Source of the DNA: Candidatus Zixiibacteriota bacterium
GTDB taxonomy: Bacteria; Zixibacteria; MSB-5A5; GN15; FEB-12
DNA: 64,000 nucleotides
Reading direction: 5' to 3'
Assembly (NCBI GenBank): GCA_036826635.1
Contig: DAISVY010000012.1
Location: 9,170 to 73,169, forward strand
A model generated the notes under the pieces. That model was not told where the DNA came from. It did not search any database and saw only the letters and a program-made list of their open reading frames with translations. Positions 11,152 through 59,779 of the stretch are shown piece by piece. The position numbers and the translations under genes are program-made. Numbering within the stretch: position 1 is the first letter of the stretch; the number at the start of each line of letters is the position of its first letter.

Positions 11152-11161
11152 GTGATTTACC

Positions 11162-11764: not shown

Positions 11765-11775
11765 GAGACTGATCT

Positions 11776-12843: not shown

Positions 12844-12853
12844 AGGACTTCTC

Positions 12854-13819: not shown

Positions 13820-13821
13820 TC

Positions 13822-14757: not shown

Positions 14758-14949
14758 ATTTTCGAGGCCGCTCTTCTTTCACTCACGGCATAAGCATGTC
14801 CGGCTAAAATTGTTCGGCCAACCGAGCCACGCAGATCAGTTTTTCCGTATCCCGATGACAGGTGCGACGTTCGAAATTGTCGTAGACGTACGGCCTCGGC
14901 TTCTCCATCCGATCTTACCTCCACGTTTATATCATCGCATAATGAAATA

Positions 14950-22890: not shown

Positions 22891-22914
22891 ACTATCACAC
22901 CGTCCGATTAACGA

Positions 22915-23133: not shown

Positions 23134-23164
23134 ATTCCGTCCTCCGGCTTCTCCCGACTCGACC

Positions 23165-24374: not shown

Positions 24375-24396
24375 AGTCCGAGAGCTTTCTGTACAA

Positions 24397-24993: not shown

Positions 24994-24997
24994 CCGC

Positions 24998-25966: not shown

Positions 25967-26023
25967 AATCCGTGGTCCGTTCCGAGGATTTCTTTAACCG
26001 TCGGAACCCTCAGATAGCCTTTC

Positions 26024-27388: not shown

Positions 27389-27922
27389 AGTTTTGTTGCC
27401 CAACCTTGCCTTATTCTGTTCTGCAACGGTCCTGCTTTTCCGCGACAGTCCGAGCCACTTCTGCCCGACAGATTAAAAGCATCCGGCCGGGGCGGTTCAA
27501 TCCCGAGGCCGTGCTTTCCGCCGAACAGGCTATACTCGTACAGGGGAGATAAGTGCGGCCCGGTATCAGACGATGCATTACCATAATCATTACTACCCCG
27601 GTGCTCTTAAGCTTTTTGACTTCGAGCTCCCGTCTGCCGGTCACAGTACATTCGCGGGCAGTCACTCAGGTGACGTGCAGGCTTCCGTGGCCAAGTTTGG
27701 CCAATATAACGGACAATAAAAAGATTCCAAGTATTTTCTTCCATATTGTTATCTGCCATATCCGAATAGTGTTTATGCACTTACCTTCCGTCCGGTTAAA
27801 CCGCCGGTTTATCTCTCGTTGGCAGTTCCGCGACATCTCGCAACTTACCGACCCGGCGAGCGGTCAGATAAGTTAAAAACAACACCGGTTTTTCAGGAGC
27901 AATGGATTTCGTAGTTGTATTT

Positions 27923-42772: not shown

Positions 42773-42776
42773 CGTT

Positions 42777-43523
42777 ATGATACAGTCGACGACATCTTCC
42801 CCCGCCTCACAAACGAGCCTTCTCTCCGGTCTTCGGAGTCTGGTAGCTTTCTTCCGGTACAACGCCACTCACGTTTTCGCGGGGAAATTCATCTATTTCC
42901 TGGCCCTGGGGATCGGGATTTTCATTCTCGTGACGGTAATATACGTTTTGGACAGCAGCACCCCGCCGGATGCCGAGGCCATTTACTACTTTCTTTTGGT
43001 CCCGGGGGTATTGTTGATTTTCTATCCGTCGGCCTATTCCATTCAGAGCGACGTCGACAGCCGCATGATAGAAACGCTCTTCGGTATTCCCGACTACCGT
43101 TACAAAGTCTGGCTGGCCCGAAACATCACCATGTATCTGGTCGTGACCGCCCTGCTGTTTTTACTGGCGTTGTTTTGCCGACTGACGATGGCCGATTTTT
43201 CGATATGGTCAATGTCGTTTCAACTCCTGTTCCCGGTGGCGTTCATCGGCAGTCTGGCGTTTATGACCGCAACCATCACGCGCAGCGGCAACGGCACCGC
43301 CGTCATCATGGTGATAATCCTTCTTGTCTTCTGGATTGCCGCCGAACCGCTCGAGGGCAGCCGCTGGAATCTGTTTCACAACCCCTTCACTCAGGTGGAT
43401 CAGTTCGAGACTTTTTTGTGGGCGGAGACGACGCTTTATAACCGCATTTACCTGCTGACAGGTGCGGCTGTGGCCACCATGTTCGGTCTGCTGCGTCTGC
43501 AACGTCGCGAGAAATTGATCTGA
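42777..43523 (+). CDS. ABC-2-like six-TM permease
   Basis: 248 aa with about six hydrophobic helices. It starts 4 nt after the NBD-bearing gene, and its size and position match the membrane partner of an ABC-2 ATPase. I saw no diagnostic motif. Confidence 0.5.
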   Translation: MIQSTTSSPASQTSLLSGLRSLVAFFRYNATHVFAGKFIYFLALGIGIFILVTVIYVLDSSTPPDAEAIYYFLLVPGVLLIFYPSAYSIQSDVDSRMIETLFGIPDYRYKVWLARNITMYLVVTALLFLLALFCRLTMADFSIWSMSFQLLFPVAFIGSLAFMTATITRSGNGTAVIMVIILLVFWIAAEPLEGSRWNLFHNPFTQVDQFETFLWAETTLYNRIYLLTGAAVATMFGLLRLQRREKLI

Positions 43524-43544
43524 TACGCCCGGGAAACCGGATCG

Positions 43545-45206
43545 TCAGGCTTCCGGGTGCAGAGGAAAACGAAAGACGAAAGTTGTTCCCTGACCCGGTT
43601 CGCTGTTTATATCGACCTCGGCCCGGTGGTTGCTGATAATCTTCGCACAGATAACCAACCCGTAACCATGTCCCGTTTCCTTCGTCGTCAGATGAAATTT
43701 GAAAAGCTTCTTCTTGACTTCCGGAGTGATCCCCGAACCGTTATCGGAAATGGACAGGAGAACGGTGTCCCCTTCGACACTTGTCTTGACTTCGATATGA
43801 CCGTCGGGACGCCGGGTTTCGGCGACGGCATCAGCGGCGTTGTTGAGCACATTAAGTAACAGTTGTGCTATCTGATCGGTGTCCATTTCGAAAGACGGCA
43901 AGTTCGGCTCGAGGTCGGTCGAGATCGACACCCGCGTGAACTTTTTCTGCACCAATACGAAGGACAGCACATCGGTGACCGTGGAATTCAGACTGGCGAT
44001 GCTCTTGCATGCCTCCAGCCGGGTGTAGTCGGTCAAACCGGCCGTGTAGCGTTCCATCTTGCCGACATGGGATTTCAGCTTCTCGAGCGAGTTGGCCACT
44101 TTATCCATATTGCCCCGCGCCATAGCCATCTGGGCCAGTTCTACCCCGCCCAGAATGAGAGCCAGGAAGTTATTCAACTCGTGGGCGATGGACGAGGCCA
44201 TTACGCCCTTGTCGGCGAATTTTTCGAGGTCGAACAGCTTTTGCTCGTTCTCTTTTTGCGCCGTGACATCGTCCAGCGTAAAAACGAGATCGGATTCGCG
44301 TTCGTCGCGACGTTCAATAGAAGAAAACCGGACGTTATATATTCGCTCGAATTCGGGCCCTTTGGCCACCTGATTTTCTATGAAACTGCTGTGAGTTCCG
44401 GCCCGGGTTTTAAGTAACCGCCGCCCCCAACCGGGGAAAGCGTACTCGGGGAAAACGCTGTCCAGCGGCTGTCCGATAACCGAGTCGAAATCGGACACGT
44501 TGGGCAGACAGTCCCGAAGAATGCTCATACCGGCACTGTTCACTTTCTTGAGAGTATAGTCCTGCTCTCCGAAAACGAAAACACCCTGCCTGACGCTGTC
44601 CAGAATTTCCAGATACCATGCGTTCAGGCCCCGCATCTGCGTAATCAAAAAAGAATTGGCGATAAACGGCGCACTGGCGTTGGCAAGCGTACTCAACAAC
44701 TCAAGTTCACTGTCAGCCAGCGGCTTGTGGCTGATCTTCTCCCCCAGTCCGATCACGCCCCAATACCATTCCCCGTGGATCAGCGGAACCAGTACCTGAA
44801 CACCCGTTTCCTTCAGTCTCGCCAGGATTCGCTGAGCGTCATCCGGCAAATCTTCCCGATCAAAACAACATGGCCGGGGATCGGCCAGGAAATATTCGGA
44901 CAATTCCAATTGCTGACAATCCAGCCCTATTCCGGCAGCATCCTGAAAATGGCCGGTTCCGGAACAGATAGGCGGGCTGGCGCCGGCTTCCGGGTTGCGC
45001 ACCACGGCAATGACATCAGCCACGGAGAACTGCCCGGAAACGGTGAGAACCAACTGGTCGAGAAGACAACGGTAATCCGGTTTTTTTGAAAACTGCTCGG
45101 TTAGTTCGGCCAGCGCGTTGAGCGCCATGGCTTCAATATCCACCGAGGCCCGACGACGAACTGTCGCGGCACTCTCGTTCCGGACTGAATCTGTAATCTG
45201 TGACAT
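43545..45206 (-). CDS. Cytoplasmic GAF/PAS sensor histidine kinase
   Basis: 553 aa with no obvious TM segment. GAF-like N-terminal half, a PAS-like middle region, H-box SSIAHELNNFLALILGG, N box LLNVLNNAADA, G boxes DNGSGI and GHGYGL, and GQGTTFVFRFP. Confidence 0.85.
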   Translation of the reverse strand: MSQITDSVRNESAATVRRRASVDIEAMALNALAELTEQFSKKPDYRCLLDQLVLTVSGQFSVADVIAVVRNPEAGASPPICSGTGHFQDAAGIGLDCQQLELSEYFLADPRPCCFDREDLPDDAQRILARLKETGVQVLVPLIHGEWYWGVIGLGEKISHKPLADSELELLSTLANASAPFIANSFLITQMRGLNAWYLEILDSVRQGVFVFGEQDYTLKKVNSAGMSILRDCLPNVSDFDSVIGQPLDSVFPEYAFPGWGRRLLKTRAGTHSSFIENQVAKGPEFERIYNVRFSSIERRDERESDLVFTLDDVTAQKENEQKLFDLEKFADKGVMASSIAHELNNFLALILGGVELAQMAMARGNMDKVANSLEKLKSHVGKMERYTAGLTDYTRLEACKSIASLNSTVTDVLSFVLVQKKFTRVSISTDLEPNLPSFEMDTDQIAQLLLNVLNNAADAVAETRRPDGHIEVKTSVEGDTVLLSISDNGSGITPEVKKKLFKFHLTTKETGHGYGLVICAKIISNHRAEVDINSEPGQGTTFVFRFPLHPEA

Positions 45207-45209
45207 ATG

Positions 45210-45581
45210 CTAATACGTTATGCCGCACATGGCGGCCGCTTCCTTTTCATCGGATCGAATCGTGAGATAATCGGCCAGATCGAGCACCTCAAGAATATGC
45301 CGGATATGATCGGACACGTTGCACAAGACTATATCGCCGCCCCGCTCGCGAAAAGACTGGACAGTGCCAAGTATAGAACCAACCCCGGCCGATGACAAAA
45401 ACTCGAGGCGAGCCATATCGATGATGACGTACTTGTAACCTTTTTTCTCTCCGGTCGATATAATCTTGACCATCTCATGAGCGTTTTGATTGTCCAAAAC
45501 CGGTCCGGGGTCCACAACTACCGTATCGTCCCGCAAAACACGCTCTTTTATCTCTTCGTACCCCATCCTTATTGGCTCCAT
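45210..45581 (-). CDS. STAS-domain protein (anti-sigma-factor antagonist, SpoIIAA/RsbV-like)
   Basis: 123 aa. IIDMARLEFLSSAGVGSILG contains the conserved phosphorylatable Ser context. Also GGDIVLCNVSDHIRHILEVLDLADYLTI. Confidence 0.8.
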   Translation of the reverse strand: MEPIRMGYEEIKERVLRDDTVVVDPGPVLDNQNAHEMVKIISTGEKKGYKYVIIDMARLEFLSSAGVGSILGTVQSFRERGGDIVLCNVSDHIRHILEVLDLADYLTIRSDEKEAAAMCGITY

Positions 45582-46333
45582 TTCTTCTCGAGAGTAAGTT
45601 CGTTCATGGTCCCGTCCTTGCGACGATACGAAATGCGGTCAACGAGTCTGCTTAACATAGGCAGTCCAAAACCCCGTTTTTGACCACTTTTAGCCGAGGC
45701 CACAACATCCAGGTCCATCGAACGAGAAGTTGGATCAAACGGAATCCCGGGATCGGTGAAGGTCAAGACCATCATTTCATCGTAAGGACTGACCGTGAAA
45801 ACGATTTCGTCACCGACTTCCAGAGCGGCATAGCTCTGAATGTTAGTTGTCACCTCATAAAAAACCGTCCGCAGTTCGAACTCCAGAACCTCGGAGAGCC
45901 CCATATCCGAGAGAAAACTCCGAAATCTCATCCTGGCTCGCGCTATGCTGTCAACATCAGCATGGAAACGATCCTGATAAGTCTCCTCAAAATGATTTTG
46001 CTTCCGGCAACGGCCGCCGACATTCAGAGATCCCGTAGCATCTTCCTCGGGAAAGAATTCCCTGAGATCCAACGCCTGAAGGACCCGCATAAGACCCCGC
46101 GAGGCCGCTTTGAGCTTAAGGGGTACCCCGGCCGAATGACAAGTTTCGTAAAGTTGCCAGAGAATTCCCACCTGACGCGACTTGACATGGGCCAGTTTTG
46201 AGCAATCCAGAATTATAGCAGGAGGTTTCTGTCCCAGTAGTTTCGCCAGTTCTTCCTCAAAGGCAGCCATTCCCGTAACTGACATATCCCTGGGAACCTC
46301 TATTGTCACTTCCCCTTTTGTACTAGTTTGCAT
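45569..46333 (-). CDS. STAS domain fused to an RsbW/SpoIIAB-like serine kinase (HATPase) domain
   Basis: The N-terminal ~110 aa are STAS-like (ILDCSKLAHVKSRQVGILWQL...LKLKAASRGLMRVLQALDL). The C-terminal half is an anti-sigma kinase fold (ELRTVFYEVTTNIQSYA, FTDPGIPFDP, GFGLPMLSRLVD). ATG at 46333 is preceded by GAGAGGG. The track start at 46360 is an alternative. Confidence 0.7.
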   Translation of the reverse strand: MQTSTKGEVTIEVPRDMSVTGMAAFEEELAKLLGQKPPAIILDCSKLAHVKSRQVGILWQLYETCHSAGVPLKLKAASRGLMRVLQALDLREFFPEEDATGSLNVGGRCRKQNHFEETYQDRFHADVDSIARARMRFRSFLSDMGLSEVLEFELRTVFYEVTTNIQSYAALEVGDEIVFTVSPYDEMMVLTFTDPGIPFDPTSRSMDLDVVASAKSGQKRGFGLPMLSRLVDRISYRRKDGTMNELTLEKKWSQ

Positions 46334-47921
46334 GTACCCTCTCTTCATTCCTGTCAACATTTATATCGACTGAAAGCCCTTTCCACTTCATGGCCAGAAG
46401 CGTAATATCGTCGTATTGTGGTGCCGAACCGACGAAATCCCGGTGCCGGTCAAGAGTTTGACTGACCAGTCGGGGCGGATCCAGATCTTTGTAATCGCTT
46501 ACTATCTCTATAAATCTGTCCATACCAAACTCGTCGGCCGCTTCGTTCTGAGCTTCATTGACTCCGTCCGAATACTGAATAAGCCAATCGCCGCTGTTAA
46601 GCATCACATGTGCTTCTTCTATCCGTCGGGCAAAAGGTTCGGGTGGCATCATTCCCAAGGGATAGCCCCTGGTTTTTATCAATTCGGTCCGACCGCTCAG
46701 TCCGTCGATTCGAATCAGCGGGTTGTGTCCGGCTGACGCAAAATCGAACCGGCCCGATTTCTTATTCAAAAGACCGAAGAACATCGTCACGAACATCCCC
46801 TTCTTGATGTTCTGCAGTAACTCGCTGTTGACCTCCGAAAGCAGCCGGCCCGGTGTCCGGATCGAACGCGAAACCTGCCGCACGATATCACGGGTAAGAA
46901 GCATGACCAGCATACCCGGAAGCGACTTGCCTGACACGTCGGCTACGAGAAAACCAAGCTGCTCATCATCGAAATTGATGAAATCATAATAATCGCCGCC
47001 GACCTCCCGGGCGCTGTGATAGGAACCGGCAAACTCGAAATCCGACGCCGAAGGATAGGCACGCGGCAGGATATTGGCCTGGATTTCATGGGCGATTTCC
47101 AATTCTCGAGAAATGCGCTCGTTCTGTATCTTCTCCTGCTGAGCGCTCTGTAAGCGCGATCCCATAACCCGGAGAGTCTCCGCCAGATAGCCAAACTCGT
47201 TCTTACTGGTCACGGGAATATCCAGGGTCATATTATCTACCGAAACGTGCCGCAATTTATCGGTGATGATGCTGACCGGACGCAGTTTCCGATGCAGCAA
47301 CACCATGCCCACGATCATCCCCACCAGAACCATGAACAGAGTAGTGGAAGCCACGGCAATCACGGACGCCCGCCGCGCATCGGTGATCTCACGAACTGAA
47401 GAGGCCAGCCCCAGCCGGCCCAGCAGAATACCGTTTTCGACAATCGGCGTGGTAATATAGATCGTATCCCCGCGCTGGGCGAATCTCTCGTTTTCATGCA
47501 GAATCTCGCCGAAGTGTCCTTCGGGCGGCTCGGACATCTCGGCTTTGGAGATAACCTGTTTCAGATCGGTATGAGCCAGAAAGACCCGATCGGTACCGGC
47601 AATACCGGCCCAGTAAATATCGGGGTTGTCGACAGCGAGTTTCTTGCAAATGTTGTTAAGCAGCAAAGCATCCGGTTCGCCGGACGAAATGATATGCTTG
47701 CCCGCCATACCTGAAAAAGATCGGGCCTGAACCAGGAGTTTCTCAGCTACACTGCGAGTAACGGTGCCGACGAATTTATCGGTAATAACATAGCCGGTAA
47801 CAGCCATCAGGGCGAGAATCAGCAACGAAATATATAAGGAGAACTCAAACCGAATCGATTTGCGAAAATTTCTGGCTTCGGGCCAACTTGCCACCGGGCG
47901 GCCGGGCTCACTGTTGCTCAT
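46323..47921 (-). CDS. Membrane sensor PP2C phosphatase (SpoIIE/RsbU family) with periplasmic domain and HAMP
   Basis: 532 aa. TM1 (FSLYISLLILALMAVTGYVI), an extracytoplasmic region of about 150 aa, TM2, a HAMP-like linker, then PP2C blocks EIAHEIQANILP, GGDYYDF, VADVSGKSLPG, SDGVNEA. Confidence 0.85.
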   Translation of the reverse strand: MSNSEPGRPVASWPEARNFRKSIRFEFSLYISLLILALMAVTGYVITDKFVGTVTRSVAEKLLVQARSFSGMAGKHIISSGEPDALLLNNICKKLAVDNPDIYWAGIAGTDRVFLAHTDLKQVISKAEMSEPPEGHFGEILHENERFAQRGDTIYITTPIVENGILLGRLGLASSVREITDARRASVIAVASTTLFMVLVGMIVGMVLLHRKLRPVSIITDKLRHVSVDNMTLDIPVTSKNEFGYLAETLRVMGSRLQSAQQEKIQNERISRELEIAHEIQANILPRAYPSASDFEFAGSYHSAREVGGDYYDFINFDDEQLGFLVADVSGKSLPGMLVMLLTRDIVRQVSRSIRTPGRLLSEVNSELLQNIKKGMFVTMFFGLLNKKSGRFDFASAGHNPLIRIDGLSGRTELIKTRGYPLGMMPPEPFARRIEEAHVMLNSGDWLIQYSDGVNEAQNEAADEFGMDRFIEIVSDYKDLDPPRLVSQTLDRHRDFVGSAPQYDDITLLAMKWKGLSVDINVDRNEERVHAN

Positions 47922-49923
47922 AGGAAAGCTCTCTCAGTTTCAGAATCTCGGTTTCGGTGCGTTTGATGTAATCCTGAATAGCCTCGTTATCGGGATCAAG
48001 TCGGGCGGCCTTTTTCCATGTGGCCACGGCTTCCTGCAATTGGTTCTTTCCGTACAGTTCGATACCGACAAACTTATAGGCGTTGATCAAGTACTTTCGC
48101 ACCGACTGATAATCCGGCGCCAGACGTTCGACCCTCTCCCAGTTGGCAATTGCTTCACCCAGACGGCCGTTCTCAAAGGCGTCCTGCGCCGCCTTGTTGA
48201 CTCCTTCTATTTCTTTGCGCAATTCATCGCTAAGCACCACGGCTGTTTTGGGCGCAACCGCAACCGTATCAACCGACGGCTTGTGCATATCGTCCAGAAT
48301 CCGACGGCGCAGATCCAGACACCATTGGTGATCCGGGAAAAGAACCAAGGCCGAATCGACCGTCGCCAGGGCGGTTTTGAAGTTCTCGCCTACGAAAGCC
48401 ACCGAGGCTGTTTCGCGCAGGTGTTCGAATTCAACCCGCTTGATAGCCAACCGGACACTGGCGTTTTCATCGGCGAATTGACGGAGGCTCCGAACGAGTT
48501 CAAGGGCATCATCCACGTATCCATAGCTCAGAAGCGAATCGATATCCCACAGGCGTTCTCTTATCAGCTCGTCTTTGGCCACCGTCCGTTCGATAGCGGC
48601 ATCAGCCTGTTCCAGAATCCTTTGAGCCTGTTCCGAATTGGAAACGTCAGACAAAGCCAGATCGGCAAAATGCCGAGCGCCGAGGTAGTCCTTCCGGGCC
48701 AGCCGTTCCTGCGCCGACTTCAGATTCTTATCAAAGCGACCGACTCGTTCGGCCCGGTCAAGCCGCTCATGGGCTGTAAGGACCATCTCATAAATGGCGG
48801 TCGTGTCCATGTCATTACCGCGCGCCAGGAACAAGGCCCGATCAAGCATGGTGGCGGCCTGCACCAGATCTCCTTTATCAAGAAGCTCCCGGCCACGATC
48901 CACCAACTGCCCGACTGTCTGACGGTTGCGCTCGCCCAGCCGCGTGTTCATCAAATCGTTGAATTGCGACTCTCTCTCCCGGGTCCGGGCCAGCCGCCGT
49001 TCATTTACGGGTGTTCCGAAAGAAGTCGTCAGAGTGAACATATGCAGACTGCCGAGATCACGATCCACAAGGGCGTAATCGAACCTTAGCAGCTTATACT
49101 GTAAACCGACACCGAACGACAACTTGCCCTCACGGACACCACCGCGCAGATGGAGAAGCTCTTTGAAACTATACTCGACCCCGACAGCCAACCGGGGATC
49201 GATATCTTCTATCTTGGTAAGTCGGGCACAGAGCGTAGCCTCCTGTCCCCAGTCGGCCCCGGGCACCAACCCAAGCGCAACCCCCAGATCGAAACTGGTC
49301 GGATACTCGACCGTCTCTTCCGACAGCTTCATCCCGGGTTTCAACAGATTGCGACCTTCCGCGGTCACGATAAGGTGATCAAAAAACGTCGAGCCAAAAG
49401 CAAACCTGCGACTGACCGACAAAGCCATACCGGGCGACGAAGTCGCCGTGTAATCGTCGATAGAATGATGCTCCAGAGACAGGCTCATCCCGACAGCATA
49501 ACCGGCGATGAATCGTCCATAGGCAAGATTAAATCCGAGCCGGTTGTCGTCGGTCTCCCCCAGCAGAAGATTACCGGCGTCTCGCTTTTCTATCCCGCTG
49601 ACACCGAGCCGGAAAATACCCAAACCGAAAACACCGTAGTCAAGCGTGGGAATGGCTATGCCCAGATACTGGTAAGCAACATCGGAATCATACAACGTAC
49701 TGTGGAAACCGCCGAATTCATACTGTTGGGCATCAGCCAGTCGCGAGGCATTCCAGAACGGGGCCGTAGTGGCGTCACTTACGGAAAGAGCCGCCCCGCC
49801 CAGTGAGAGCTCACGAGCCCCGGCACCGAAACTGAACGGTGATTGCGTACCACCGTCGTCGGCCGCCATAGAAACGCCGAAGCTCAGCAAGACCACGAGT
49901 ATGATTGATCCAAGTCGCCTCAT
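47908..49923 (-). CDS. Outer-membrane beta-barrel-like domain (PorQ/PorV-like pattern) fused to a C-terminal TPR array
   Basis: 671 aa. Signal peptide. Residues about 25-305 have GARELSLGGAALSV...APFWNASRLA and alternating beta-strand periodicity ending ...SLHMFTLTTSF. Residues about 330-671 are helical TPR-like repeats (GRLGEAIANWERVERLAPDYQ..., LQEAVATWKKAARLDPDN). ATGA overlap with the giant gene's stop. Confidence 0.6.
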   Translation of the reverse strand: MRRLGSIILVVLLSFGVSMAADDGGTQSPFSFGAGARELSLGGAALSVSDATTAPFWNASRLADAQQYEFGGFHSTLYDSDVAYQYLGIAIPTLDYGVFGLGIFRLGVSGIEKRDAGNLLLGETDDNRLGFNLAYGRFIAGYAVGMSLSLEHHSIDDYTATSSPGMALSVSRRFAFGSTFFDHLIVTAEGRNLLKPGMKLSEETVEYPTSFDLGVALGLVPGADWGQEATLCARLTKIEDIDPRLAVGVEYSFKELLHLRGGVREGKLSFGVGLQYKLLRFDYALVDRDLGSLHMFTLTTSFGTPVNERRLARTRERESQFNDLMNTRLGERNRQTVGQLVDRGRELLDKGDLVQAATMLDRALFLARGNDMDTTAIYEMVLTAHERLDRAERVGRFDKNLKSAQERLARKDYLGARHFADLALSDVSNSEQAQRILEQADAAIERTVAKDELIRERLWDIDSLLSYGYVDDALELVRSLRQFADENASVRLAIKRVEFEHLRETASVAFVGENFKTALATVDSALVLFPDHQWCLDLRRRILDDMHKPSVDTVAVAPKTAVVLSDELRKEIEGVNKAAQDAFENGRLGEAIANWERVERLAPDYQSVRKYLINAYKFVGIELYGKNQLQEAVATWKKAARLDPDNEAIQDYIKRTETEILKLRELSYEQQ

Positions 49924-52900
49924 CGTATTATCGCAATCTTTCGCTTATGCTCTTCGGTCCGTCCCGAAACATAATGCGCCGTTATCCGGCAGAAGTATGT
50001 CCCCGGAACAACATCACAACCCGCGTCATTGTCGCCCGACCAGATATCCGTCTGCTGCGACCCGGCTTCGCGGAAAGCATTCTCGGCTACCGTTTTCACC
50101 GCTTCGCCGGTAATCGAGAACAACTCAATATCCACATGGGCATCTTCGGACAACACGTACCCGATAGTGGTAGCACCGTCCTGAGCCGGGTTGAACGGGT
50201 TGGGATAATTCGTAAATGATTGCCCCAGGCTGGCCTCGGTGATCGATATCTCGGTACCGTACAGCGGGTATGACGTGCCGCTCTCCAAAACCGGATATAT
50301 CGCGGTTGCCATGTTTTTGTCCGCAATGTCGAACGAAGTGGAGTCCTCGAAGAGAATCAGATAATCACCCCGACGAGCGTCATCTCGTACGTCACAAACA
50401 ACGCTTACCGGCACCGTTCCCCCGGAAGAGACATCGTAACCGCCGTCGATGGTAAACAGCAAGGTATCACCGTTCAGAACCGAATCGGTGGCGACAACCT
50501 CGTCATCGAACACCAGATGTACGGCCCGGAAAATCTCCGCACCCGCACCGGCCTCAAGATGATCGCTGTATCGCCGGACAACTTTCCCCTGCCAGGAAGC
50601 GACGACCAGATCGCCTTCAAGCGTGGGGCTGTCATATTCCAGATCGCCGGAGAAAACGATCAATCCGGTTTGACCGGCACAAGTAAGTTGAACAGGGGCG
50701 GTAACGGTTGACAACACCGGTCGCCCGGCCGGCTGGAAGATATCCGTTTCTTCCGTTCTGAAGGGGAAACCGTCGGCACACCCGTCGGCCACCTCTATGC
50801 CGGGGCTCCGCGTAGTATCGCTGGCGTCACGCACCGTGATAGCCGGGGAAGCCGATATCTCAAGGACAAAATTATCATACGGCACGTCGGCCTCGATATC
50901 GCCGTACAAACCGACCGTGACACTGTCGCCGGGGTTAAGCAATACACCTTCGGTGCCCATTTCAAACGTAACCGCACCGATCAACGGCTCGATAAACGAC
51001 TGGTAAGTGACAGGAGCATCGCCAATCGATATTCCTACCCGGTCAAAGAGAAATTCCGGGCGCAACATAGTACCATCGGCATCAAGCACGGATACGAGAA
51101 TGTCACCGATACGCACCGATGAATAGTCCGTGGTGAACGGATAAACCAGCGCCAGTTCCATAAGAACCAGAGAATCAACCCCGCCGACAACGGCCGCAGA
51201 CAGCGGAGCCGTAACACAAAGCTGCGGTGCCCCGGCCGGATATCGCAATTGTGTCCAGCCGGTTCTAATGGGGAAAACATCACCGGTCGCAAGCATCGTA
51301 TCAGGAGAAACCTGAAGCGGTGAACCGGAGCTCAGATCGCGGACGGTGAAGCAGGTACTGTCGGTTATAAGCAGCGAAAAACCATCCAGGGAAGTCTCCT
51401 CGACCAGCGACAAAATAATCGTAAGCGAGTCAATCTCACCGGCGCTGAGTGTAAGCGGTGAAGTCAGGGATAAGTTAACATGGGTCGAGTCGGTCCTGAA
51501 ATCGGCCACATGTCCCACCACCACCTGTTGTCTGAGAGCACTGGCACTTTGCAAAATCGCCGCCGCTTCCACGGGATCACCGGCCAAATCGGCAAGGCAG
51601 AAAGACAGACCGGAAAGCTGAATCTGCGAGGTCCCGACATCGCCTCCGTGGCGGAACCTGAGCATAACGGCTTCGACTCCATTCTGCCCGTAGTTTGCGG
51701 TCGAACCGAGCAGCGATACGGAAGAAGTTGCCAGCGCCTGTGACGGATCGTCCAGACGGCACGAGGCCGTTCTGAGCGGAAAACTTACGGCCGGATTAAT
51801 AGAAACCGGCAACAGCGTATTAGCATCCACGAGCACGGTCGAGGCGGCACTCTCCAGAGCCAGGGCAAAACTGGAAGCCGACGCGGCACTGTCGATGCTC
51901 ACGATAAGCATAAGATTCGAAGACTTGCCCGGAGCAATTAGAACAGGCTCCGTGAAGGTCAGCAACAAATCGGACGTATGAGGAACTTCTTCGACCGCCG
52001 CCACTATAACATACCCGGCCGCTATTACCACCCGGCTAAGAGCTTCATCCGCCGCCTGGGGTGTACCAAAACCGTCTTCAACCCGCAGGACCAGACTGTC
52101 CAACCGCAAATCGGCTCCGGTTGCGGCCGTGTCCGGGTGCGTGATGGCTATACTCATCGGGAACACGCTTGACTGCCCCCGGGTGACCGAGGTCGGCATG
52201 GAATTGATAAGCTCGACCAGTACGTCCGCGGGGGATGTCTGGATATGGACCGCTGATGTCTGGATCACCGCGGATGAATCGGGCAAAGACTCGGCAACGG
52301 CACGCAACTGCCAGGATACTTCACCGGGCTGAAGAGCCGTATAATAGAAGACGAACTCGGCCGATGTACCGCTGGACACGGCGACCGGTCCGCTGGCGCT
52401 GCTGTCAAAAACGACCAGCTCGGAATCGCTTATTCCGACGACCTGAGCTTGCACATCGTCAATCTGAATCGGCAGCAGGTTAGTCGCGTTGAAATGCACC
52501 GCGATAGTCTGCCCCACCGAATAACTTTCCGCCAAAGGCTCATAACCGGCCCGCAGACTGGAATTAGATATCGTGAATCGGTTTTCACCGCTCAGAGCGG
52601 CGTCATGAGGTCCGTCGTTGGCCGAAGCATACTGACAGCCGTTTATCGGAATTTCACCCTGGAACTCCGCCCCGGGAGCGGCTGAAGCGGCCACATCGCC
52701 CACCACGAATAATACCGGCGGGGTACTGTTAACAGCCAGATCAAGCGTTGTTATGTTCCACTCTGTCCCGGTATAGGTAAACGTACCCAGCAACAGGTCA
52801 CTTGAACTCCAATCCTCACTGGCATCGTTGTCTTTCCATAATTCCAGCGAGGAAATATCACTGGTATCCGCATCCGCCAGATTGGCCAGCCTCAAAGATT

Positions 52901-55900: not shown

Positions 55901-58900
55901 AACGAGCCAGGTCACCGACTACAACTTCAAGGTAGGCACTTGAATCGACCGCGCCCAGATTGGACGAGGCCGTCACCTGCCCGGTCCCAACCGTCGTAGC
56001 TTCGAAAAGACCATCGGTATCAATTGTCCCCAGAGACGCGGTCAAATTCCAGGTAATAGTTCCCGGATGGCGTTCGTTGCCATCGGCGTCATAGCCCACC
56101 ACCTCGTACTGAAGCGTAGAATCGGCGGACAGGATAGCCGAGTCCGGTGAAATAGTGATACTGGCCAGTTCGCCCGGTACCACTTTAAGGTAAGCGCTCG
56201 AATCCGTCACCCCCAGATCGGAGGAGGCCGTCACCTGCCCCGTACCCGTAGTCGTGGCTTCGAAAAGACCATCGGTACCAATCGTCCCCAGAGACGCGGT
56301 CAGATCCCAGGTGATCGTACCCGCATTCCGTTCGTTGCCGTCGGCGTCATAGCCGAGGACTTCATACTGAAGAGTGGAATCAGTCGAAACGACCGCCGAA
56401 TCGGGTAAGACAACAAGGTAACTCAGCGACCCGACAGTTACCACAATCGGTCCGACCGTATCAGCCAGACCGCCGCCGGAAGCTACTATCCATCCGCTTC
56501 CAACGGTAGTCGGGGAAAACAATCCGCCGGTCGAAATCGTGCCGATATCCCCCAGAACCGACCAGGCAGGGACCACGGCGGGAACGCTCTGGTTGCCGTC
56601 GGCATCGAGCGACTTCACGTAGAATTGCAGCGAGCTGTCGGTGGTGAGGGTAGCCGAAGTCGGAGACACCGACAACTTAGCGGGATGACCTGCCGTACAG
56701 GTAATCACGCCCGTACTATCGATAATCGTCGGCGAAGAGCGAGCGACAACACGCCCCGTTCCCGGTTTGGTGAGAATCATGGTCGTGGAAGTACCGACCG
56801 AATCGGACAGATGACCAATACCATCGGCCCCGATAAGGAACCACGAAACCGAGACATCGCCCAACTCCCACCAGAGATCGCTATAACCGCGCGCATACAA
56901 AACTGTCGTGTCATTGTCCGTAGCAAGGGTGGTATCACCCACCACCGTACCATCTTCAAGCTGGATTTGTACGTGCGTAAAGAAATTCGATACATGAACG
57001 CGGGCCGAGTCACTCAGGCCGCCATGGTCGGCCACAACCCAGTACCAACCGTAAACAACCCCTGCTTTGTATAAGCCGGTCCCGGACACGCTGCCGCTGA
57101 CATCGGAAGTGCTCCAGGTTACGGTACTCGTGAGGCCGCTGACCAGGTTAGAGTCGCTGTCCTTACCCGTAGCTGAGAACTGAACCGAATCCAGTCGGTG
57201 AATCGTTACTTCTTCCGGGGTAACCCGAAGCGTTACCGGATCGCCGGGAATGACCCAAATAGTGTCGGTGGTATCGACCGGTCCGAGATCACTGGAAACC
57301 CGAATGAAACCCACCCCCGCCGTCTGCGCCTCGAAGAGCCCGGTCGCGTCGATCAAACCGATCCCGTCTATGACCTGCCACGTCAGGCTACCGTGTTCGG
57401 ACACCTCGTTGCCGTTAGCGTCGTAGCCGGTCACGCTGAACTGACGGGTAGAATCGGCCGAGACCGTATCGCGGTCGGGGGTAATGGCCAGACTGACCAT
57501 GCTGCCGGACACAACTTCCAGGAATATGGTTGAATCCGTCAGCCCAAGGCTGGTATCGCTTACCACTATTCGACCCGAGCCTGACAAATCAGGAGTAAAA
57601 AGACCGGTGGCATCGATTGAACCGGTGGCGAACGTATGCGTCCAGACCGGGTTATCCACCGCCACCGTATCCCCTTCGTTGTTCACCGCCACTATCTCGA
57701 ACTGGTAGGTGGAATCGGCAAACAGGGAATCGTATTCCGGGACGATTTCAAAACTGCTTATTCCGGCGATTTCGTGAGCGCCCATATCCGGGGCGGTACC
57801 CAGATAGGTATAACCCAGATCCATACCGGCGTCGACAGCCGGAGAATTGGAGGCCAGCCTGAAATCACTGGCCGCCGTATCCATGAAAAGCGGGTCGGCC
57901 GATATTCCTCCGGCCGAATCGACCGGACCGTCGTAATGACCGTTGGCATTATCCCAAAGGTCATTGAAACCGCAGACGTTGTCGACATCGGCGTGGATAC
58001 CCTTGTCGTTCCAGGCAATGATGTTATTGAAGGCGCGCAATGTCTGGACACTGGATTGACACTCTATACCATTCCTGTCACAAAGGACTATCGTATTTCC
58101 ATATAACCGATTGTTCTCACCGGCATCGCGGTTATTGATACCCTGACTATTACACCGGGCGACGATGTTGCGGAGTATGAGATTGGCACTCCCTTCCAAC
58201 TGAAGGCCATCCTTGCCGACCTCGTGAATATAGCAATCCGAAATCCGACAGGAGTCTCCCTGCAGCATTATCCCGTCTTCGTTGCCGGCGGTTATCTCCA
58301 GCCCTTCCAGAAAGACATGATCACTATCGATGACGATAACGTTGTCTACTACCTCGTCACCGTCAATGAGCACCGAAGCATTCTCGTAGGCCCGGTATAT
58401 AATCGGAAAAGCGGCGGTTCCGTCGGTGTGGAAAGACAGCGACGTCGACAACACGTACGTACCGGCAAGGATGTTGACGGTATCCCCCGGTTGCAGAGTC
58501 GCCGTAATCTCGCCGTTATCGATTGACGCCCAGGCATCGGCGATACTCAATCCGTCGTTACCGTCGTCACCGACTGGACTGACATAAAAAGCCCGGCCGC
58601 CCGCATATTCCACGGCTCCGATATCGGGAGCGTTGCCGGTGTAAGCATCCCCGATATCAATACCGGCATCAATGACCGGAGATGTCGCCTGCACACTGAA
58701 ATCACCCGAGGCGGGATCGACGAAAAGCGGGTCGACATAGATACTCCCGGCCGAATCGGTGGCACCACCGCCGTAGTCACTGGTCGTGTTGTTCCAGAAG
58801 CAATTGAAGGCGCAAACATTACCCGACAGAGCGTCAAACCCCAGGTTGTTACCGGAAAACACGTTGTTTATGGCCCGGCCCGTGACAACTGTCGACCGGA

Positions 58901-59498
58901 TATAAAGACCTCTCAACCCGTTGCCGTGGAATACGTTGTTGTAATGCTCGTTGTATTCACCGGTAGGATCGTTGTCTAATCCCGATTCGCTGTTGAACGC
59001 AAATACGTTCCTCTTGAAGCAATTGTAACTTCCGTGGACATAAATGCCGTCCGCCCCGTTGTTGTGCACGTAACAATCGGAAATCACGCAAGAGTCGGAT
59101 TCGACAAACATCCCCTGTATCTGGGAATTGTAAATGTTCAGCCTTTCAAGCCTGGTGAATTTCCCTTCCATGGAAACGGGCGCGAATGCCTGCCAGTTAC
59201 CGTTAAGATAAGACCAGGCGGTATCGTCGCCGCGATAGACAATCGGGTCCGCAGCCGTACCATCGGTTATCAGGCGCATCGTCCCGGCGAGCACATACGT
59301 ACCCGGCAGAACATACACCGTATCTCCGGGTACAAGCACACCGGTCTGATCACCGTTATCGAGCGACAACCAGGCGCTTTCCGAAGAGAGCCCATCGTCG
59401 AAATCGTTCCCGGTCGGGGAGACATAATAAGTAGTAGCTCCGACGCTCCGGACCAGAACGGCAGAAATGAAAAATACGACGAGGAATGCTTTGCGCAT
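49920..59498 (-). CDS. Giant (3192 aa) T9SS-sorted surface protein: 2 parallel beta-helix modules, 9 Ig-like (Big_2-type) domains, about 1730 aa of unassigned repeat modules, and a C-terminal sorting domain
   Basis: Signal peptide MRKAFLVVFFISAVLVRSVGA. Residues 23-577 hold two paralogous right-handed beta-helix/DUF1565-like modules (YYVSPTGND..., FYVSPVGDD...). Residues 578-1365 are nine ~86-aa Ig-like domains. Residues 1366-3096 are repeated ~155-170-aa modules with no family I can name. Residues 3097-3192, NYPNPFNPAQDGATTIGYVL...PGTYFCRI...KIAIIR, form the sorting domain (nt 49923-50210). Confidence 0.85.
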   Translation of the reverse strand: MRKAFLVVFFISAVLVRSVGATTYYVSPTGNDFDDGLSSESAWLSLDNGDQTGVLVPGDTVYVLPGTYVLAGTMRLITDGTAADPIVYRGDDTAWSYLNGNWQAFAPVSMEGKFTRLERLNIYNSQIQGMFVESDSCVISDCYVHNNGADGIYVHGSYNCFKRNVFAFNSESGLDNDPTGEYNEHYNNVFHGNGLRGLYIRSTVVTGRAINNVFSGNNLGFDALSGNVCAFNCFWNNTTSDYGGGATDSAGSIYVDPLFVDPASGDFSVQATSPVIDAGIDIGDAYTGNAPDIGAVEYAGGRAFYVSPVGDDGNDGLSIADAWASIDNGEITATLQPGDTVNILAGTYVLSTSLSFHTDGTAAFPIIYRAYENASVLIDGDEVVDNVIVIDSDHVFLEGLEITAGNEDGIMLQGDSCRISDCYIHEVGKDGLQLEGSANLILRNIVARCNSQGINNRDAGENNRLYGNTIVLCDRNGIECQSSVQTLRAFNNIIAWNDKGIHADVDNVCGFNDLWDNANGHYDGPVDSAGGISADPLFMDTAASDFRLASNSPAVDAGMDLGYTYLGTAPDMGAHEIAGISSFEIVPEYDSLFADSTYQFEIVAVNNEGDTVAVDNPVWTHTFATGSIDATGLFTPDLSGSGRIVVSDTSLGLTDSTIFLEVVSGSMVSLAITPDRDTVSADSTRQFSVTGYDANGNEVSEHGSLTWQVIDGIGLIDATGLFEAQTAGVGFIRVSSDLGPVDTTDTIWVIPGDPVTLRVTPEEVTIHRLDSVQFSATGKDSDSNLVSGLTSTVTWSTSDVSGSVSGTGLYKAGVVYGWYWVVADHGGLSDSARVHVSNFFTHVQIQLEDGTVVGDTTLATDNDTTVLYARGYSDLWWELGDVSVSWFLIGADGIGHLSDSVGTSTTMILTKPGTGRVVARSSPTIIDSTGVITCTAGHPAKLSVSPTSATLTTDSSLQFYVKSLDADGNQSVPAVVPAWSVLGDIGTISTGGLFSPTTVGSGWIVASGGGLADTVGPIVVTVGSLSYLVVLPDSAVVSTDSTLQYEVLGYDADGNERNAGTITWDLTASLGTIGTDGLFEATTTGTGQVTASSDLGVTDSSAYLKVVPGELASITISPDSAILSADSTLQYEVVGYDADGNERHPGTITWNLTASLGTIDTDGLFEATTVGTGQVTASSNLGAVDSSAYLEVVVGDLARLAISPDSAIVSADSTLQYEVLGYDADDNQRDMGTITWDLTASLGTIGTDGLFEATTTGTGQVTVSSDLGVTDSSAYLEVVSGELVRIVVSPDTAAVSLGDSVQFSVTGYDADSNVTSAGEITWRSVGRIGSIDTTGLFIASRPGNGQIRATSNIRDIADSSGTIQVDELHLTTIALGQSRLRPNQADAVVLAFRIENYFDHAKTVTDLTVRDASRGVGTAEQRLSNVDSIALYLDIDNDSLLSGSDSLLVTAVYDTAVVNLPLGPLTIGPDSGRTLLVTVTAGMYPRDGDSIDLELFTATDITTADATTVVGPDTANSLGYAVFDGSIAAQYGVVSTGVEIMSPGDTVYNVMILDVPRNGYAADELNVFTVTNMGTAQVDDIDSLVLYVDDGNGVWGGSAEETRLGELSFTGSQWTLSGLSTVMTDTLTRFYLAAGLAAYPVQGATVAFEVPIEGVRMSSGNDGPIDIVLEPADTISIQTEQALTVANLPLLDHRLTPGEYSDPIMCLRLKNSYANSVSVDSLLCQLVAADPDGADQSQLDSQIDSLMLYADLDGNPMAIGAADTLVASALVSDGRAVFVTDGFTIGGVGDSLSLSVVAAISLANAKNGNRINISIDDSTDVYTSDGERVTGVFPVTNPDDFTVDAFPSAAVTVNEVEGSTLFGGCTVEPVLDIELPRDGYAVGHLKQITLVNIGTFEESSDLMSLRLWFDAAADGFDGDEELVGQFVYNGLSWTLAELSWPLNALHNRMIVTASIGSGQFKGGTLQFRIPRQGIEYLSGTIGPDDVALSNPSAHLVLPSDRITVISIPASSVNVLPGSAENVILTFALYNGYVGQEQTLQTLRLTNTTRSVSTMSFADYEVGQVSLYYDADNNRLLDGDPLAASASFYDGELQLSGLNIALPPESLLYFWVLVDVPQNVIDSDSLAVVVPRQDDIIFSSPVNINGDLPLTSGAYLVVDGSIAAQYNVRDLPARTLSPGDTSVTLFSFRPAFNGDQTDFLQSLRLANLADADTSDISSLELWKDNDASEDWSSSDLLLGTFTYTGTEWNITTLDLAVNSTPPVLFVVGDVAASAAPGAEFQGEIPINGCQYASANDGPHDAALSGENRFTISNSSLRAGYEPLAESYSVGQTIAVHFNATNLLPIQIDDVQAQVVGISDSELVVFDSSASGPVAVSSGTSAEFVFYYTALQPGEVSWQLRAVAESLPDSSAVIQTSAVHIQTSPADVLVELINSMPTSVTRGQSSVFPMSIAITHPDTAATGADLRLDSLVLRVEDGFGTPQAADEALSRVVIAAGYVIVAAVEEVPHTSDLLLTFTEPVLIAPGKSSNLMLIVSIDSAASASSFALALESAASTVLVDANTLLPVSINPAVSFPLRTASCRLDDPSQALATSSVSLLGSTANYGQNGVEAVMLRFRHGGDVGTSQIQLSGLSFCLADLAGDPVEAAAILQSASALRQQVVVGHVADFRTDSTHVNLSLTSPLTLSAGEIDSLTIILSLVEETSLDGFSLLITDSTCFTVRDLSSGSPLQVSPDTMLATGDVFPIRTGWTQLRYPAGAPQLCVTAPLSAAVVGGVDSLVLMELALVYPFTTDYSSVRIGDILVSVLDADGTMLRPEFLFDRVGISIGDAPVTYQSFIEPLIGAVTFEMGTEGVLLNPGDSVTVGLYGDIEADVPYDNFVLEISASPAITVRDASDTTRSPGIEVADGCADGFPFRTEETDIFQPAGRPVLSTVTAPVQLTCAGQTGLIVFSGDLEYDSPTLEGDLVVASWQGKVVRRYSDHLEAGAGAEIFRAVHLVFDDEVVATDSVLNGDTLLFTIDGGYDVSSGGTVPVSVVCDVRDDARRGDYLILFEDSTSFDIADKNMATAIYPVLESGTSYPLYGTEISITEASLGQSFTNYPNPFNPAQDGATTIGYVLSEDAHVDIELFSITGEAVKTVAENAFREAGSQQTDIWSGDNDAGCDVVPGTYFCRITAHYVSGRTEEHKRKIAIIR
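50211..55403 (-). repeat. Unassigned repeat-module region of the giant protein (about ten modules of 155-170 aa)
   Basis: A recurrent skeleton is visible in the translation, e.g. L.FTV(T/L)N.G...(D/S)DI.SL.L(Y/W).D...LG.(F/L).(F/Y).G..W.(L/I)...F.(I/V)P..G.....NDGP.D in modules 2, 4 and 6. Modules 1, 3 and 5 carry a second subtype (..(F/L).(I/L).N.(F/Y)......SI.LY.D.D.N). Confidence 0.6.
55404..57767 (-). repeat. Coding tandem array of nine Ig-like (Big_2-type) domains
   Basis: Units of 86, 87, 86, 99, 86, 86, 86, 86 and 86 aa. They share ...SPD...V..(A)DST.QF.V.GYDA.GN......TW....G.ID..GLF.A...G.G.V...S. Confidence 0.75.
55662..56435 (-). repeat. Three highly similar 258-bp (86-aa) tandem units (Ig domains 6-8)
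   Basis: The anchor GTCACCTG recurs at 55714, 55972 and 56230, an exact 258-nt period. Long identical runs include CGAAAAGACC.TCGGTA.CAAT.GTCCCCAGAGACGCGGTCA. The proteins differ at only a few positions (DSTLQYEV(L/V)GYDAD(G/D)N(E/Q)R...GLFEATT(T/V)GTGQVT). Confidence 0.85.
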
Positions 59499-59779
59499 GC
59501 TGAAAATCCGGACCTCTTTATTTCCTTTGATTATCGGTCGATTCCCGCAAAACCTAAACCGTCCATCTCGTTACGCGAGATTACGACAGACCAGAAAAAA
59601 AGACTGAAATAACCCCGAAGACCTCAAAGGCCGAGTTACTGACAAAACTTCCAATAATCCACACAACCGATTGGCGAACAATACGTTAGGGCATTAACGT
59701 ACGCCTCTTGACCACCCTTGAAAAAAGTCGTAGCTTGCTTTGGTAAAAAAGCACCCTGTACACATTTGCGGAGATCCCG

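Follow-up and report, generated by a model that had tools for sequence, protein, structure and literature searches.

A six-gene cassette of Zixibacteria joins a giant type IX secretion-type surface protein and a PorV-like barrel to a partner-switching module and a GAF-PAS histidine kinase

Using a combination of methods (open reading frame (ORF) listing and translation, family and structure profile searches, AlphaFold2 (AF2) models compared with Foldseek, and annotation of related loci), we analysed a stretch of 64,000 nucleotides (nt) from a Candidatus Zixiibacteriota bacterium (GenBank assembly GCA_036826635.1, contig DAISVY010000012.1, positions 9,170 to 73,169 of the forward strand), hereafter the window. 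Its minus strand carries, at 43545-59498, six tightly packed genes, which were confirmed by ORF listing and translation. They encode, from 5' to 3', a giant secreted protein, a beta-barrel with a TPR arm, a membrane-bound PP2C phosphatase, a STAS domain fused to a serine kinase, a free STAS protein and a soluble histidine kinase. A preliminary description of this DNA, made from the letters alone, had presented the six as a chain of minus-strand genes linked by overlaps or small gaps, and both the ORFs and their domain content proved to be as described. The six-gene arrangement is far beyond chance. The cassette, which is typical of Zixibacteria and most likely co-transcribed, would build a surface organelle with an attached signalling line.

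A word-indexed search with the STAS-kinase fusion returned 14 matches, one of them named 'candidate division Zixibacteria', and on the contigs of seven of these matches all six genes were found again in unchanged order. Among species-representative genomes, a scan returned six loci, two on contigs already fetched and four new ones, from metagenome-assembled genomes (MAGs) of Zixibacteriota and GN15 and from one MAG labelled Acidobacteriota; a metagenome scan yielded 35 additional loci, and the six-gene order was seen again in two more look-ups, one of them on a 3.84-Mb contig. The 54 fetched loci (L055, a second copy of the window's own contig, stands outside this number) were annotated with hidden Markov models (HMMs) of the six families, and correspond to about 30 non-redundant loci with protein identities of 30-60%. 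In every long-enough locus the order was giant, barrel-TPR, PP2C, STAS-kinase, STAS and GAF-PAS histidine kinase, all on one strand. The loci come mostly from Zixibacteria or GN15; in the NCBI taxonomy, Zixiibacteriota belong to the FCB group, and GN15 is listed with the unplaced candidate phyla. The MAG labels 'Acidobacteriota', 'Eisenbacteria' and 'Ignavibacteriaceae' (three loci), which are possible binning errors, were not relied on.

The junctions are conserved as well. As read directly from the sequence, the giant and barrel genes overlap by 4 nt (ATGA) and the barrel and PP2C genes by 14 nt; the corresponding distances are -4 in 30 of 34 loci and -14 or -11 in 34 of 37. The PP2C and STAS-kinase genes overlap by 11 nt when the latter starts at Met10 (38 nt with the longest ORF), a distance found in 24 of 34 loci, and the Met10 start is favoured by the alignment of homologues, the public gene call and an upstream Shine-Dalgarno-like GAGAGGG. 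Between STAS-kinase and STAS there is either a 13-nt overlap (start of STAS at Met1) or a 2-nt gap (start at Met6); the relatives (median +2) and the public gene call favour Met6, which makes the gap more likely. The last junction, between STAS and the histidine kinase, is a 3-nt gap (median +4 in the relatives). Of the junctions listed in the preliminary description, those of giant and barrel, barrel and PP2C, PP2C and STAS-kinase, and STAS and kinase stand unchanged, whereas the 13-nt overlap reported between STAS-kinase and STAS should probably be replaced by the 2-nt gap.

Unlike these junctions, the flanks are unrelated from one clade to the next (genes of heme synthesis; MarR together with RND; RelA together with glycosyltransferases; tldD), and no seventh conserved gene, regulator or sigma factor was found to flank the cassette beyond close relatives. 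The sole break seen is at L042:13386-16138, where the kinase is absent after the STAS gene and an IS110-like transposase ORF (14169-15242, minus strand) stands instead; L050 shows a 237-nt gap followed by a truncated PAS-containing ORF. Since the overlaps are conserved while the flanking genes are not, we regard the six genes as one inherited unit, and the comparison of sequences indicates that the cassette is discrete and vertically inherited. With stop and start codons whose overlaps are conserved, the six genes are very likely co-transcribed and translationally coupled, and they very probably form a single functional and transcriptional unit. Thus, the gene order, which the preliminary description had proposed to check in related genomes, is kept there, and the six genes behave as one unit while their neighbours change. 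The sizes of two of the families, which vary with the clustering thresholds, point the same way: the barrel-TPR family comprises 259 clusters at E <= 1e-5 (the best 120 of the 259 are 658-675 amino acids (aa) long and 46-58% identical) and the STAS-kinase family 184 full-length representatives of about 250-260 aa at E <= 1e-30 (exhaustive profile search, 50%-identity clusters), comparable figures, as expected from one copy per cassette. The public annotations of the cassette parts are generic ('hypothetical', 'TPR protein', 'ATP-binding protein').

Table 1. Genes, domains and upstream region of the six-gene cassette (window coordinates)
Feature	Position	Strand	Basis or remark
Intergenic region, 281 nt	59499..59779	-	Separates the giant gene from tldD/pmbA (divergent pair)
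Giant secreted protein, 3192 aa	49920..59498	-	Pfam; orthologues in the same position
Giant C-terminal domain, aa 3097-3192	49923..50210	-	T9SS (type IX secretion system) type-A-like sorting signal
PorV-like barrel with TPR arm, 671 aa	47908..49923	-	NCBIfam, AF2, Foldseek
Beta-barrel, aa ~31-302	49018-49833	-	Outer-membrane, PorV-like
All-helical TPR arm, ~365 aa, aa 303-671	47911-49017	-	AF2 helices
TM-HAMP-PP2C (SpoIIE family) phosphatase, 532 aa	46323..47921	-	Pfam SpoIIE, HAMP
Extracytoplasmic domain of the phosphatase, aa 49-186	47364-47777	-	Between TM1 and TM2 (transmembrane segments)
PP2C/SpoIIE catalytic domain, aa ~290-515	46377-47054	-	Pfam
STAS+HATPase_c_2 fusion, 254 aa from Met10	45569..46333 (longest ORF to 46360)	-	Pfam
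Fused divergent STAS, N-terminal	46034-46333	-	Pfam STAS 7e-8
RsbW/SpoIIAB-type serine kinase domain	45572-45991	-	Pfam HATPase_c_2 1.9e-15
Free STAS, 118 aa from Met6 (123 aa from Met1 at 45581)	45210..45566	-	Pfam, TIGR00377
HisKA+HATPase_c histidine kinase, soluble, 553 aa	43545..45206	-	Pfam, NCBIfam
GAF-PAS head, aa 1-320	44247-45206	-	Segment-wise comparison
HisKA/HATPase_c transmitter, aa 321-553	43548-44246	-	Pfam; without a receiver domain in the window

The giant protein has a signal peptide at one end and a sorting domain at its C-terminus, with two right-handed beta-helix regions and Big_2 Ig-like repeats in between (Pfam matches to Beta_helix, 5.8e-18; Big_2, 1.3e-16; NosD and DUF5123); about 1500 of its residues match no family, and a PDB search with the protein gave no match. 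The N-terminal Sec signal peptide (MRKAFLVVFFISAVLVRSVGA, followed by TTYYV) was judged by eye from the translation, and the orthologues, which are 2588-3612 aa long and occupy the same cassette position, start alike. A tandem repeat of 258 nt (2.8 copies, 78% matches) at 55658-56381, within the giant gene, codes for repeated Big_2-type modules.

The assignment of the giant as a T9SS-type cargo, already made in the preliminary description, draws support from its tail. This tail contains the motifs NYPNPFNP ... GTYFCRI ... RKIAIIR, gives matches to the C-terminal portions of two models (T9SS-dependent M6-like protease, 3e-7; PorU, 3e-5), and aligns over the last 96 residues with the PF18962-positive tail of another protein of the window, encoded by ORF 886-4632 (33% identity, E = 1e-11); both tails share NYPNPFNP and an end of the form K(I/M)xxx(K/R). 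PF18962 itself was not reported for the giant tail in the family scans, and FlgD_ig is a 'faint' match in the giant orthologues. ORF 886-4632 (minus strand, 1248 aa, Por_Secre_tail 33.7 bits, SdrD_B-like) is a second T9SS-type cargo, with no adjacent carrier, and the presence in the window of a second cargo with a related tail indicates that the organism uses the T9SS-type sorting signal for other proteins. In 21 loci, the mean identity of the giant tail is 61%, as compared with 38% for the preceding 204 aa; the tail being the best conserved part of the giant C-terminus, this fits its recognition by a specific partner.

A candidate for this partner is encoded by the next gene. The barrel matched the PorV2 model at 7e-14 and, in a PDB profile search, PorV (6h3i_F) at 9e-4. 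In the AF2 model of the barrel-TPR protein (48-sequence alignment, pLDDT 86.3), strands occupy residues 68-302 and unbroken helices residues 306-668, and the top Foldseek matches of the barrel in the PDB are the PorV chains of the Flavobacterium johnsoniae T9SS translocon (8gl6_F, 6.4e-11; 6h3i_F, 2.5e-9; TM-scores 0.63-0.65), followed by FadL. Model and matches agree in giving this protein the FadL-like barrel fold of PorV, and support calling the barrel PorV-like. The termini of outer-membrane barrels face the periplasm, for which reason we place the TPR arm there. From its fold and its adjacency to the giant gene, the barrel is rather probably a dedicated carrier or anchor of the giant. In known systems, type-A cargo is served in general by PorV, and type-B cargo such as SprB by a carrier of its own, SprF. 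The giant and its barrel look like a third arrangement, in which a barrel of PorV fold, endowed with a large periplasmic arm, is reserved for a single type-A-like giant.

The third protein spans the membrane with two hydrophobic segments (TM1, aa ~25-48; TM2, aa ~187-210), which are followed by a HAMP domain (Pfam 9e-4) and a SpoIIE-type catalytic domain (6.7e-41) with RssB, SiaA (6k4e, 3e-8) and Rv1364c as PDB relatives. The metal-binding residues D310, D313, D328, D452, D504 and D505 are invariant in 21 loci. The extracytoplasmic domain, in which 17 residues are invariant in the same loci, is as conserved as the catalytic domain; it gave no Pfam match even at E = 10 and no PDB profile match, and a search for it on other architectures, of limited sensitivity, returned only partial orthologues of this phosphatase.

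The PDB profile matches of the STAS-kinase fusion are SpoIIAA, TM1442, RsbW and SpoIIAB, in line with its AF2 model, in which Foldseek likens the kinase to SpoIIAB/RsbW (TM-scores 0.74-0.85) and the STAS to RsbV-type proteins (0.6-0.73). The N, G1 and G2 boxes of GHKL kinases are kept in 149 representatives (E160, N164 and G223 in all 149; G196 in 148; G221 in 146; D194 in 140). In the fused STAS, Ser52, which stands at the position of Ser58 of SpoIIAA (window 46178-46180), occurs in 144 of the 149 and His54 in 133, within a motif, V-T-S-S-H-I, that differs from the canonical D-S-S-G-L-G; Ser52 may be a site of cis-phosphorylation. The free STAS (Pfam STAS 4.8e-17) scores 58.4 bits with the anti-sigma-antagonist model TIGR00377, above its cut-off of 53.45. 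It has a serine at the SpoIIAA Ser58 position in the motif LEF[LI]SSAGVGS, which is conserved in nine loci apart from the one Leu/Ile position, and is among the best conserved of the six proteins (44-62% identity to the window). As the RsbU/RsbV/RsbW-type residues of PP2C, kinase and STAS are kept, with the catalytic and acceptor positions intact, the phosphatase/kinase/STAS switch is complete as judged from sequence, with a second, covalently attached STAS in addition.

The last protein is a histidine kinase (Pfam HATPase_c, 1.5e-24; HisKA, 2.4e-5; NCBIfam AtoS-like, 1.3e-45; PDB profile matches to ZraS, down to 2.4e-48, and to FixL), whose residues H342, N452, N456, D488, G490, G492, G512, G514 and G516, from the H-box and the N/G1/G2 ATP-binding motifs, are invariant in 25 orthologues. 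It turned out to be a mosaic, a finding to which we were led by the zero correlation of the kinase core in a comparison of domain distance matrices. All loci share an orthologous GAF-PAS head (33-42% identity, E 1e-46 to 1e-80; Pfam reports GAF_2 in 17 and PAS_7 in 10 of the 25 orthologues), while the transmitter falls into two classes. The short class, to which the window belongs, is 60-66% identical to the transmitter of the window; the long hybrid class (L003, L006, L007, L011, L021, L031, L035 and L041) is 22-28% identical to it, has an extra PAS in some cases, and ends in a canonical receiver with the DD, D, S and K residues (Response_reg in 7 of the 25). In a tree of barrel plus phosphatase (quick neighbour-joining, without support values), the hybrid class is nested among short-class lineages, which implies that the transmitter was replaced and the head kept. 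What the cassette keeps in its sixth gene is thus the head, an outcome that would be expected if the GAF-PAS head received the signal of the switch, and that favours the kinase as the putative target. The preliminary description had called the kinase an orphan: indeed no regulator is encoded next to it, but one group of relatives carries its own fused receiver domain.

As regards the possible outputs of the switch, Pfam scans of 36 large ORFs of the window (the six genes of the block and 30 others) showed no sigma factor and no response regulator, and a six-frame HMM scan of the whole window showed no receiver domain, which upholds the earlier claim that both are lacking here. Likewise, the only sigma gene seen with the module in the related loci is a convergent one specific to one clade. 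In the annotated flanks of the relatives, which were partly scanned for sigma families, neither a sigma factor nor a separate receiver was found, with two exceptions: an unrelated two-component pair in L026, and an extracytoplasmic-function (ECF) sigma factor with its own zf-HC2/TPR anti-sigma factor directly after the kinase (L001:12862-15706, L009:6201-8883, L028 and L029). This ECF sigma factor is absent from all the other clades, and is therefore probably unrelated to the cassette.

The promoter of the block is presumed to lie in the 281-nt intergenic region that precedes the giant gene, where no promoter element was identified. AtoS and ZraS pair with NtrC-type regulators, and the AtoS/ZraS-like core of the kinase suggested a sigma-54 promoter; the idea was rejected, as the lone GG-N10-GC match, located 63 nt before the giant gene, has no conserved equivalent in 12 relatives. 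No Rfam match was obtained in the whole window, nor in the upstream region at a permissive threshold, hence no riboswitch or leader. Terminator-like hairpins are at chance level in 42500-60500 (24, versus 19.3 +/- 4.5 in shuffled sequences) and are uninformative either way.

From these data we propose, with a probability of about 0.45, that the cassette encodes a trans-envelope relay that ends on the histidine kinase rather than on a sigma factor. By analogy with PorV and SprF, the barrel would bind the conserved C-terminal domain of the giant and act as its dedicated carrier or anchor. The periplasmic TPR arm would meet the extracytoplasmic domain of the PP2C phosphatase, such that the loading, tension or contact state of the giant would set the activity of the phosphatase through the HAMP domain. 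The phosphorylation state of the free STAS, and perhaps that of Ser52 in its fused counterpart, would then depend on the phosphatase and the fused kinase; the unphosphorylated STAS would bind the kinase domain, as is established for the family. Instead of freeing a sigma factor, the partner switch would bind or release the GAF-PAS head of the adjacent kinase, which would signal to an unlinked response regulator or, in the hybrid lineages, to its own receiver. The parts of this proposal differ in strength. That the output of the switch is the adjacent kinase and not a sigma factor seems to us an even proposition, whereas an input from the carrier and its TPR arm, rather than from a small ligand, is put forward tentatively. 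The most specific version, a sensor of cargo state or surface contact in which the TPR arm of the carrier acts on the membrane PP2C, the latter on the STAS switch, and the switch on a GAF-PAS head that gates the kinase directly, is doubtful as a whole.

Several observations weigh against this relay. RsbW-type kinases usually hold sigma factors. The tail of the giant scores 18.9 bits with TIGR04183, below the cut-off of 23, and the barrel 66 bits (E = 4e-18, aa 32-302) with PorV_fam (NF033709), below the curated cut-off of 90; none of the T9SS core genes (SprA/Sov, PorK/L/M/N, PorU/V) is present in the 64-kb window of this 74-kb contig. The AF2 model of the fusion, in which both domains fold but the pTM is 0.58 and the linker is disordered, shows no confident docking of the STAS on the kinase. 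The sensor domain of the phosphatase has no fold recognisable by sequence, and may bind a small molecule. Internal promoters are possible; matches to sigma-70-like promoters are at chance level (16, versus 11.2 +/- 3.2). Finally, the distance matrices (11 domain segments, 21 loci, partial correlations), which were not discriminating, single out neither the pair of TPR arm and PP2C sensor nor that of STAS/kinase and GAF-PAS head: the parts of the module correlate with r of 0.5-0.8, no pair stands out, and the values are 0.39 for TPR arm and sensor and 0.40 for TPR arm and kinase. One might conclude from the lack of a specific co-evolution signal, and from the functional link between the two halves being one that we infer, that cargo and carrier were joined to the signalling module in the operon of an ancestor and have been kept together by inertia, without functional connection. 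This we find scarcely credible, because inertia alone rarely preserves such a linkage: order, strand and the overlaps of 4, 14 and 11 nt persist in about 30 lineages whose neighbours are fully reshuffled at 30-60% identity, and the only break seen is due to an insertion sequence (L042).

The remaining alternatives accept the unit and change its output, its input or its direction. If the partner switch were a classical one that acts on a remote target, the fused kinase would be the anti-sigma factor of a sigma factor encoded elsewhere in the genome, of which our inspection covered 64 kb, and the histidine kinase would merely share the operon. Indeed, the nearest relatives of the kinase domain, by sequence as well as by fold, are the sigma-binding proteins SpoIIAB, RsbW and UsfX; the score of the free STAS exceeds the cut-off of the anti-sigma-antagonist model TIGR00377; and in Chlamydia the sigma target is not encoded beside the Rsb genes (PMC11619594). 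Yet no sigma gene is linked to the cassette in about 30 loci with differing flanks, and the gene next in line (median 4 nt) invariably encodes a kinase bearing that GAF-PAS head, with the head kept through the swap of the transmitter, which would be odd for a passenger; we regard a remote sigma factor as a possible, if unlikely, target. The architecture could also be as we propose with a different input. The extracytoplasmic domain of the phosphatase would then sense a small periplasmic or environmental ligand, as proposed for Cache-type domains and for the chlamydial RsbU, the cascade would set the expression or display of the giant, and the TPR arm would serve secretion or anchoring only, TPR proteins being ordinary in the T9SS, e.g. 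SprE/PorW (PMC10994853). An arrangement of TM, sensor, TM and HAMP is the standard design of ligand sensors, the NCBIfam matches to WalK, AtoS and CreC cover this part of the phosphatase, and invariant residues of the sensor such as W104, H117, R67 and K75 would suit a binding pocket. This domain, however, matches no known ligand-binding family and was found, within the limited sensitivity of the search, only in orthologues of this phosphatase; moreover, a general nutrient sensor would leave its strict coupling to the giant and the barrel throughout the family unexplained, and we judge a ligand input distinctly unlikely. The signal could even run from the inside out, the GAF-PAS kinase and the switch responding to the metabolic state and acting post-translationally, through the phosphatase and the TPR arm, on the secretion, release or anchoring of the giant. 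It is established that GAF and PAS domains commonly bind cytoplasmic metabolites, and there is a precedent in Bordetella, where BtrU, BtrV and BtrW regulate secretion at the level of the type III system and not by way of a sigma factor (PMC7498569). As HAMP-linked PP2C phosphatases are built for outside-in signalling, and as the phosphatase, the fused kinase and the STAS carry no receiver (Pfam and the receiver HMM scan), which leaves the histidine kinase without an evident way into the switch, this direction is highly improbable.

Comparison with known systems places the trans-envelope relay in context. The preliminary description had stressed that partner switching normally ends on a sigma factor, a statement that overstates the surprise. 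Outputs other than sigma factors are documented for SiaABCD (PMC7647112) and for SypE/SypA and BtrUVW (PMC8256260, PMC7498569), and the stressosome of Vibrio is a further case (PMC9237108). In SiaABCD of Pseudomonas aeruginosa, similarly to the present cassette, the phosphorylation state of a small STAS-like protein is governed by a membrane-bound HAMP-PP2C protein (SiaA) together with a kinase; by switching partners, the STAS-like protein controls an enzyme that is not a sigma factor, as well as surface behaviour (PMC7647112). The output of SiaABCD is the diguanylate cyclase SiaD, as opposed to the histidine kinase presumed here; SiaB lacks a fused STAS, and the operon includes neither a secretion cargo nor an outer-membrane protein. 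No GGDEF protein was found in the cassette or among the 36 ORFs scanned in the window, and with SiaABCD, a system marked by SiaD and a DUF1987-type SiaC, the cassette has only the phosphatase architecture in common. The Vibrio vulnificus-type stressosome (RsbR-S-T-X plus D1 and D2) likewise couples a STAS/kinase/PP2C module to two-component proteins without a sigma factor, and its kinase was proposed to act on a downstream sensor kinase (PMC9237108). There, however, a large STAS scaffold is built by an RsbR whose sensor is a globin, and the feedback phosphatase is soluble, whereas the cassette has a free STAS besides the one that precedes the kinase in the fusion, its PP2C is a membrane sensor, and it encodes no RsbR-like sensor-STAS protein, the mark of a stressosome.

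Other systems share single traits with the cassette. The BtrU/BtrV/BtrW trio of Bordetella is tied to a secretion system and has no sigma factor (PMC7498569, PMC8256260), but this is type III secretion, the locus is a regulatory one and not a cargo locus, and neither a histidine kinase nor an outer-membrane partner is present. The RsbU of Chlamydia is a membrane PP2C with a periplasmic sensor domain (PMC11619594, preprint 10.1101/2022.05.13.491914), in a system whose target is a sigma factor. In Rv1364c of Mycobacterium tuberculosis (PDB 3ke6), the components of the switch are also fused in one chain, but phosphatase, kinase and STAS follow each other in another order and the protein is cytoplasmic.

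On the side of secretion, a giant T9SS cargo adjoining its own outer-membrane carrier is a known pattern, SprB/SprF (PMC12635249), encoded by the sprCDBF operon of F. johnsoniae (PMC12635249, PMC10994853). SprF keeps its cargo on the surface, and a periplasmic C-terminal extension connects it to the inner machinery (PMC12635249, PMC10994853). It differs from our barrel in belonging to the PorP/SprF family and in serving a type-B C-terminal domain, as opposed to the PorV fold and the type-A-like tail found here; its tail is short, with a twin-cysteine motif that is disulfide-bonded to GldK, as compared with a TPR arm of about 365 residues, and the spr operon has no signalling genes. PorV, the best structural match of the barrel in spite of weak sequence similarity, serves all cargo, whereas the cassette barrel adjoins one cargo gene, adds a large helical domain and scores below the family cut-off. 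Together, these comparisons indicate that sigma-less partner switches and dedicated T9SS carriers are each known and that their combination is new. Unmatched in the compared systems are the PorV-fold carrier with a TPR arm, the fusion with the STAS before the kinase, the invariable GAF-PAS kinase, and the joining of a cargo/carrier pair to a signalling chain in one tightly coupled operon. A literature search returned no paper joining Zixibacteria with type IX secretion, and linked partner switching to the T9SS only through incidental citations.

If the proposed relay is true, it would be the first partner switch with the carrier of a secretion system as its input and a two-component kinase as its output. 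What sigma-less switches such as SypA, BtrV and the Vibrio stressosome act on is a question for which the cassette offers a candidate target, the GAF-PAS head; as this candidate is encoded at a median of 4 nt downstream in about 28 non-redundant loci and survives the swap of the rest of the kinase, the question can be tested with purified proteins. A PorV-fold barrel with a periplasmic arm of 365 residues, beside a membrane sensor, would be a signalling counterpart to the mechanical SprF-GldK link. If the two halves are unconnected, what remains is a well-defined case, outside Bacteroidota, of a widely conserved giant surface protein paired with a putative PorV-like carrier of its own. Zixibacteria are an uncultured phylum, and the cassette is among their widely conserved, unannotated gene blocks.

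The rest of the window provides some minor observations. By Pfam, the 30 large ORFs outside the block encode metabolic enzymes, Rnf components, peptidases, efflux pumps and the second T9SS-type cargo. A run of Rnf-type genes at 22030-27403 (minus strand; RnfC, RnfD, an FMN-binding subunit, an Rnf-Nqr membrane subunit and an RnfB-like ferredoxin), together with genes for an indolepyruvate/pyruvate:ferredoxin oxidoreductase and of butyrate-kinase type at 9370-14757, indicates an anaerobic fermentative organism. Downstream of the block lies a convergent membrane-protein ORF (42777-43523, plus strand; 248 aa, multi-pass, no family match). It follows a single ORF of 1565 aa (38075-42772, plus strand), which comprises a complete AcrB/RND pump (ACR_tran, aa 1-1019) and the ATPase domain of an ABC transporter (aa 1294-1438), with about 270 aa including extra hydrophobic segments in frame between the two parts; this ORF is either an unusual RND-ABC fusion or the result of a lost stop codon.

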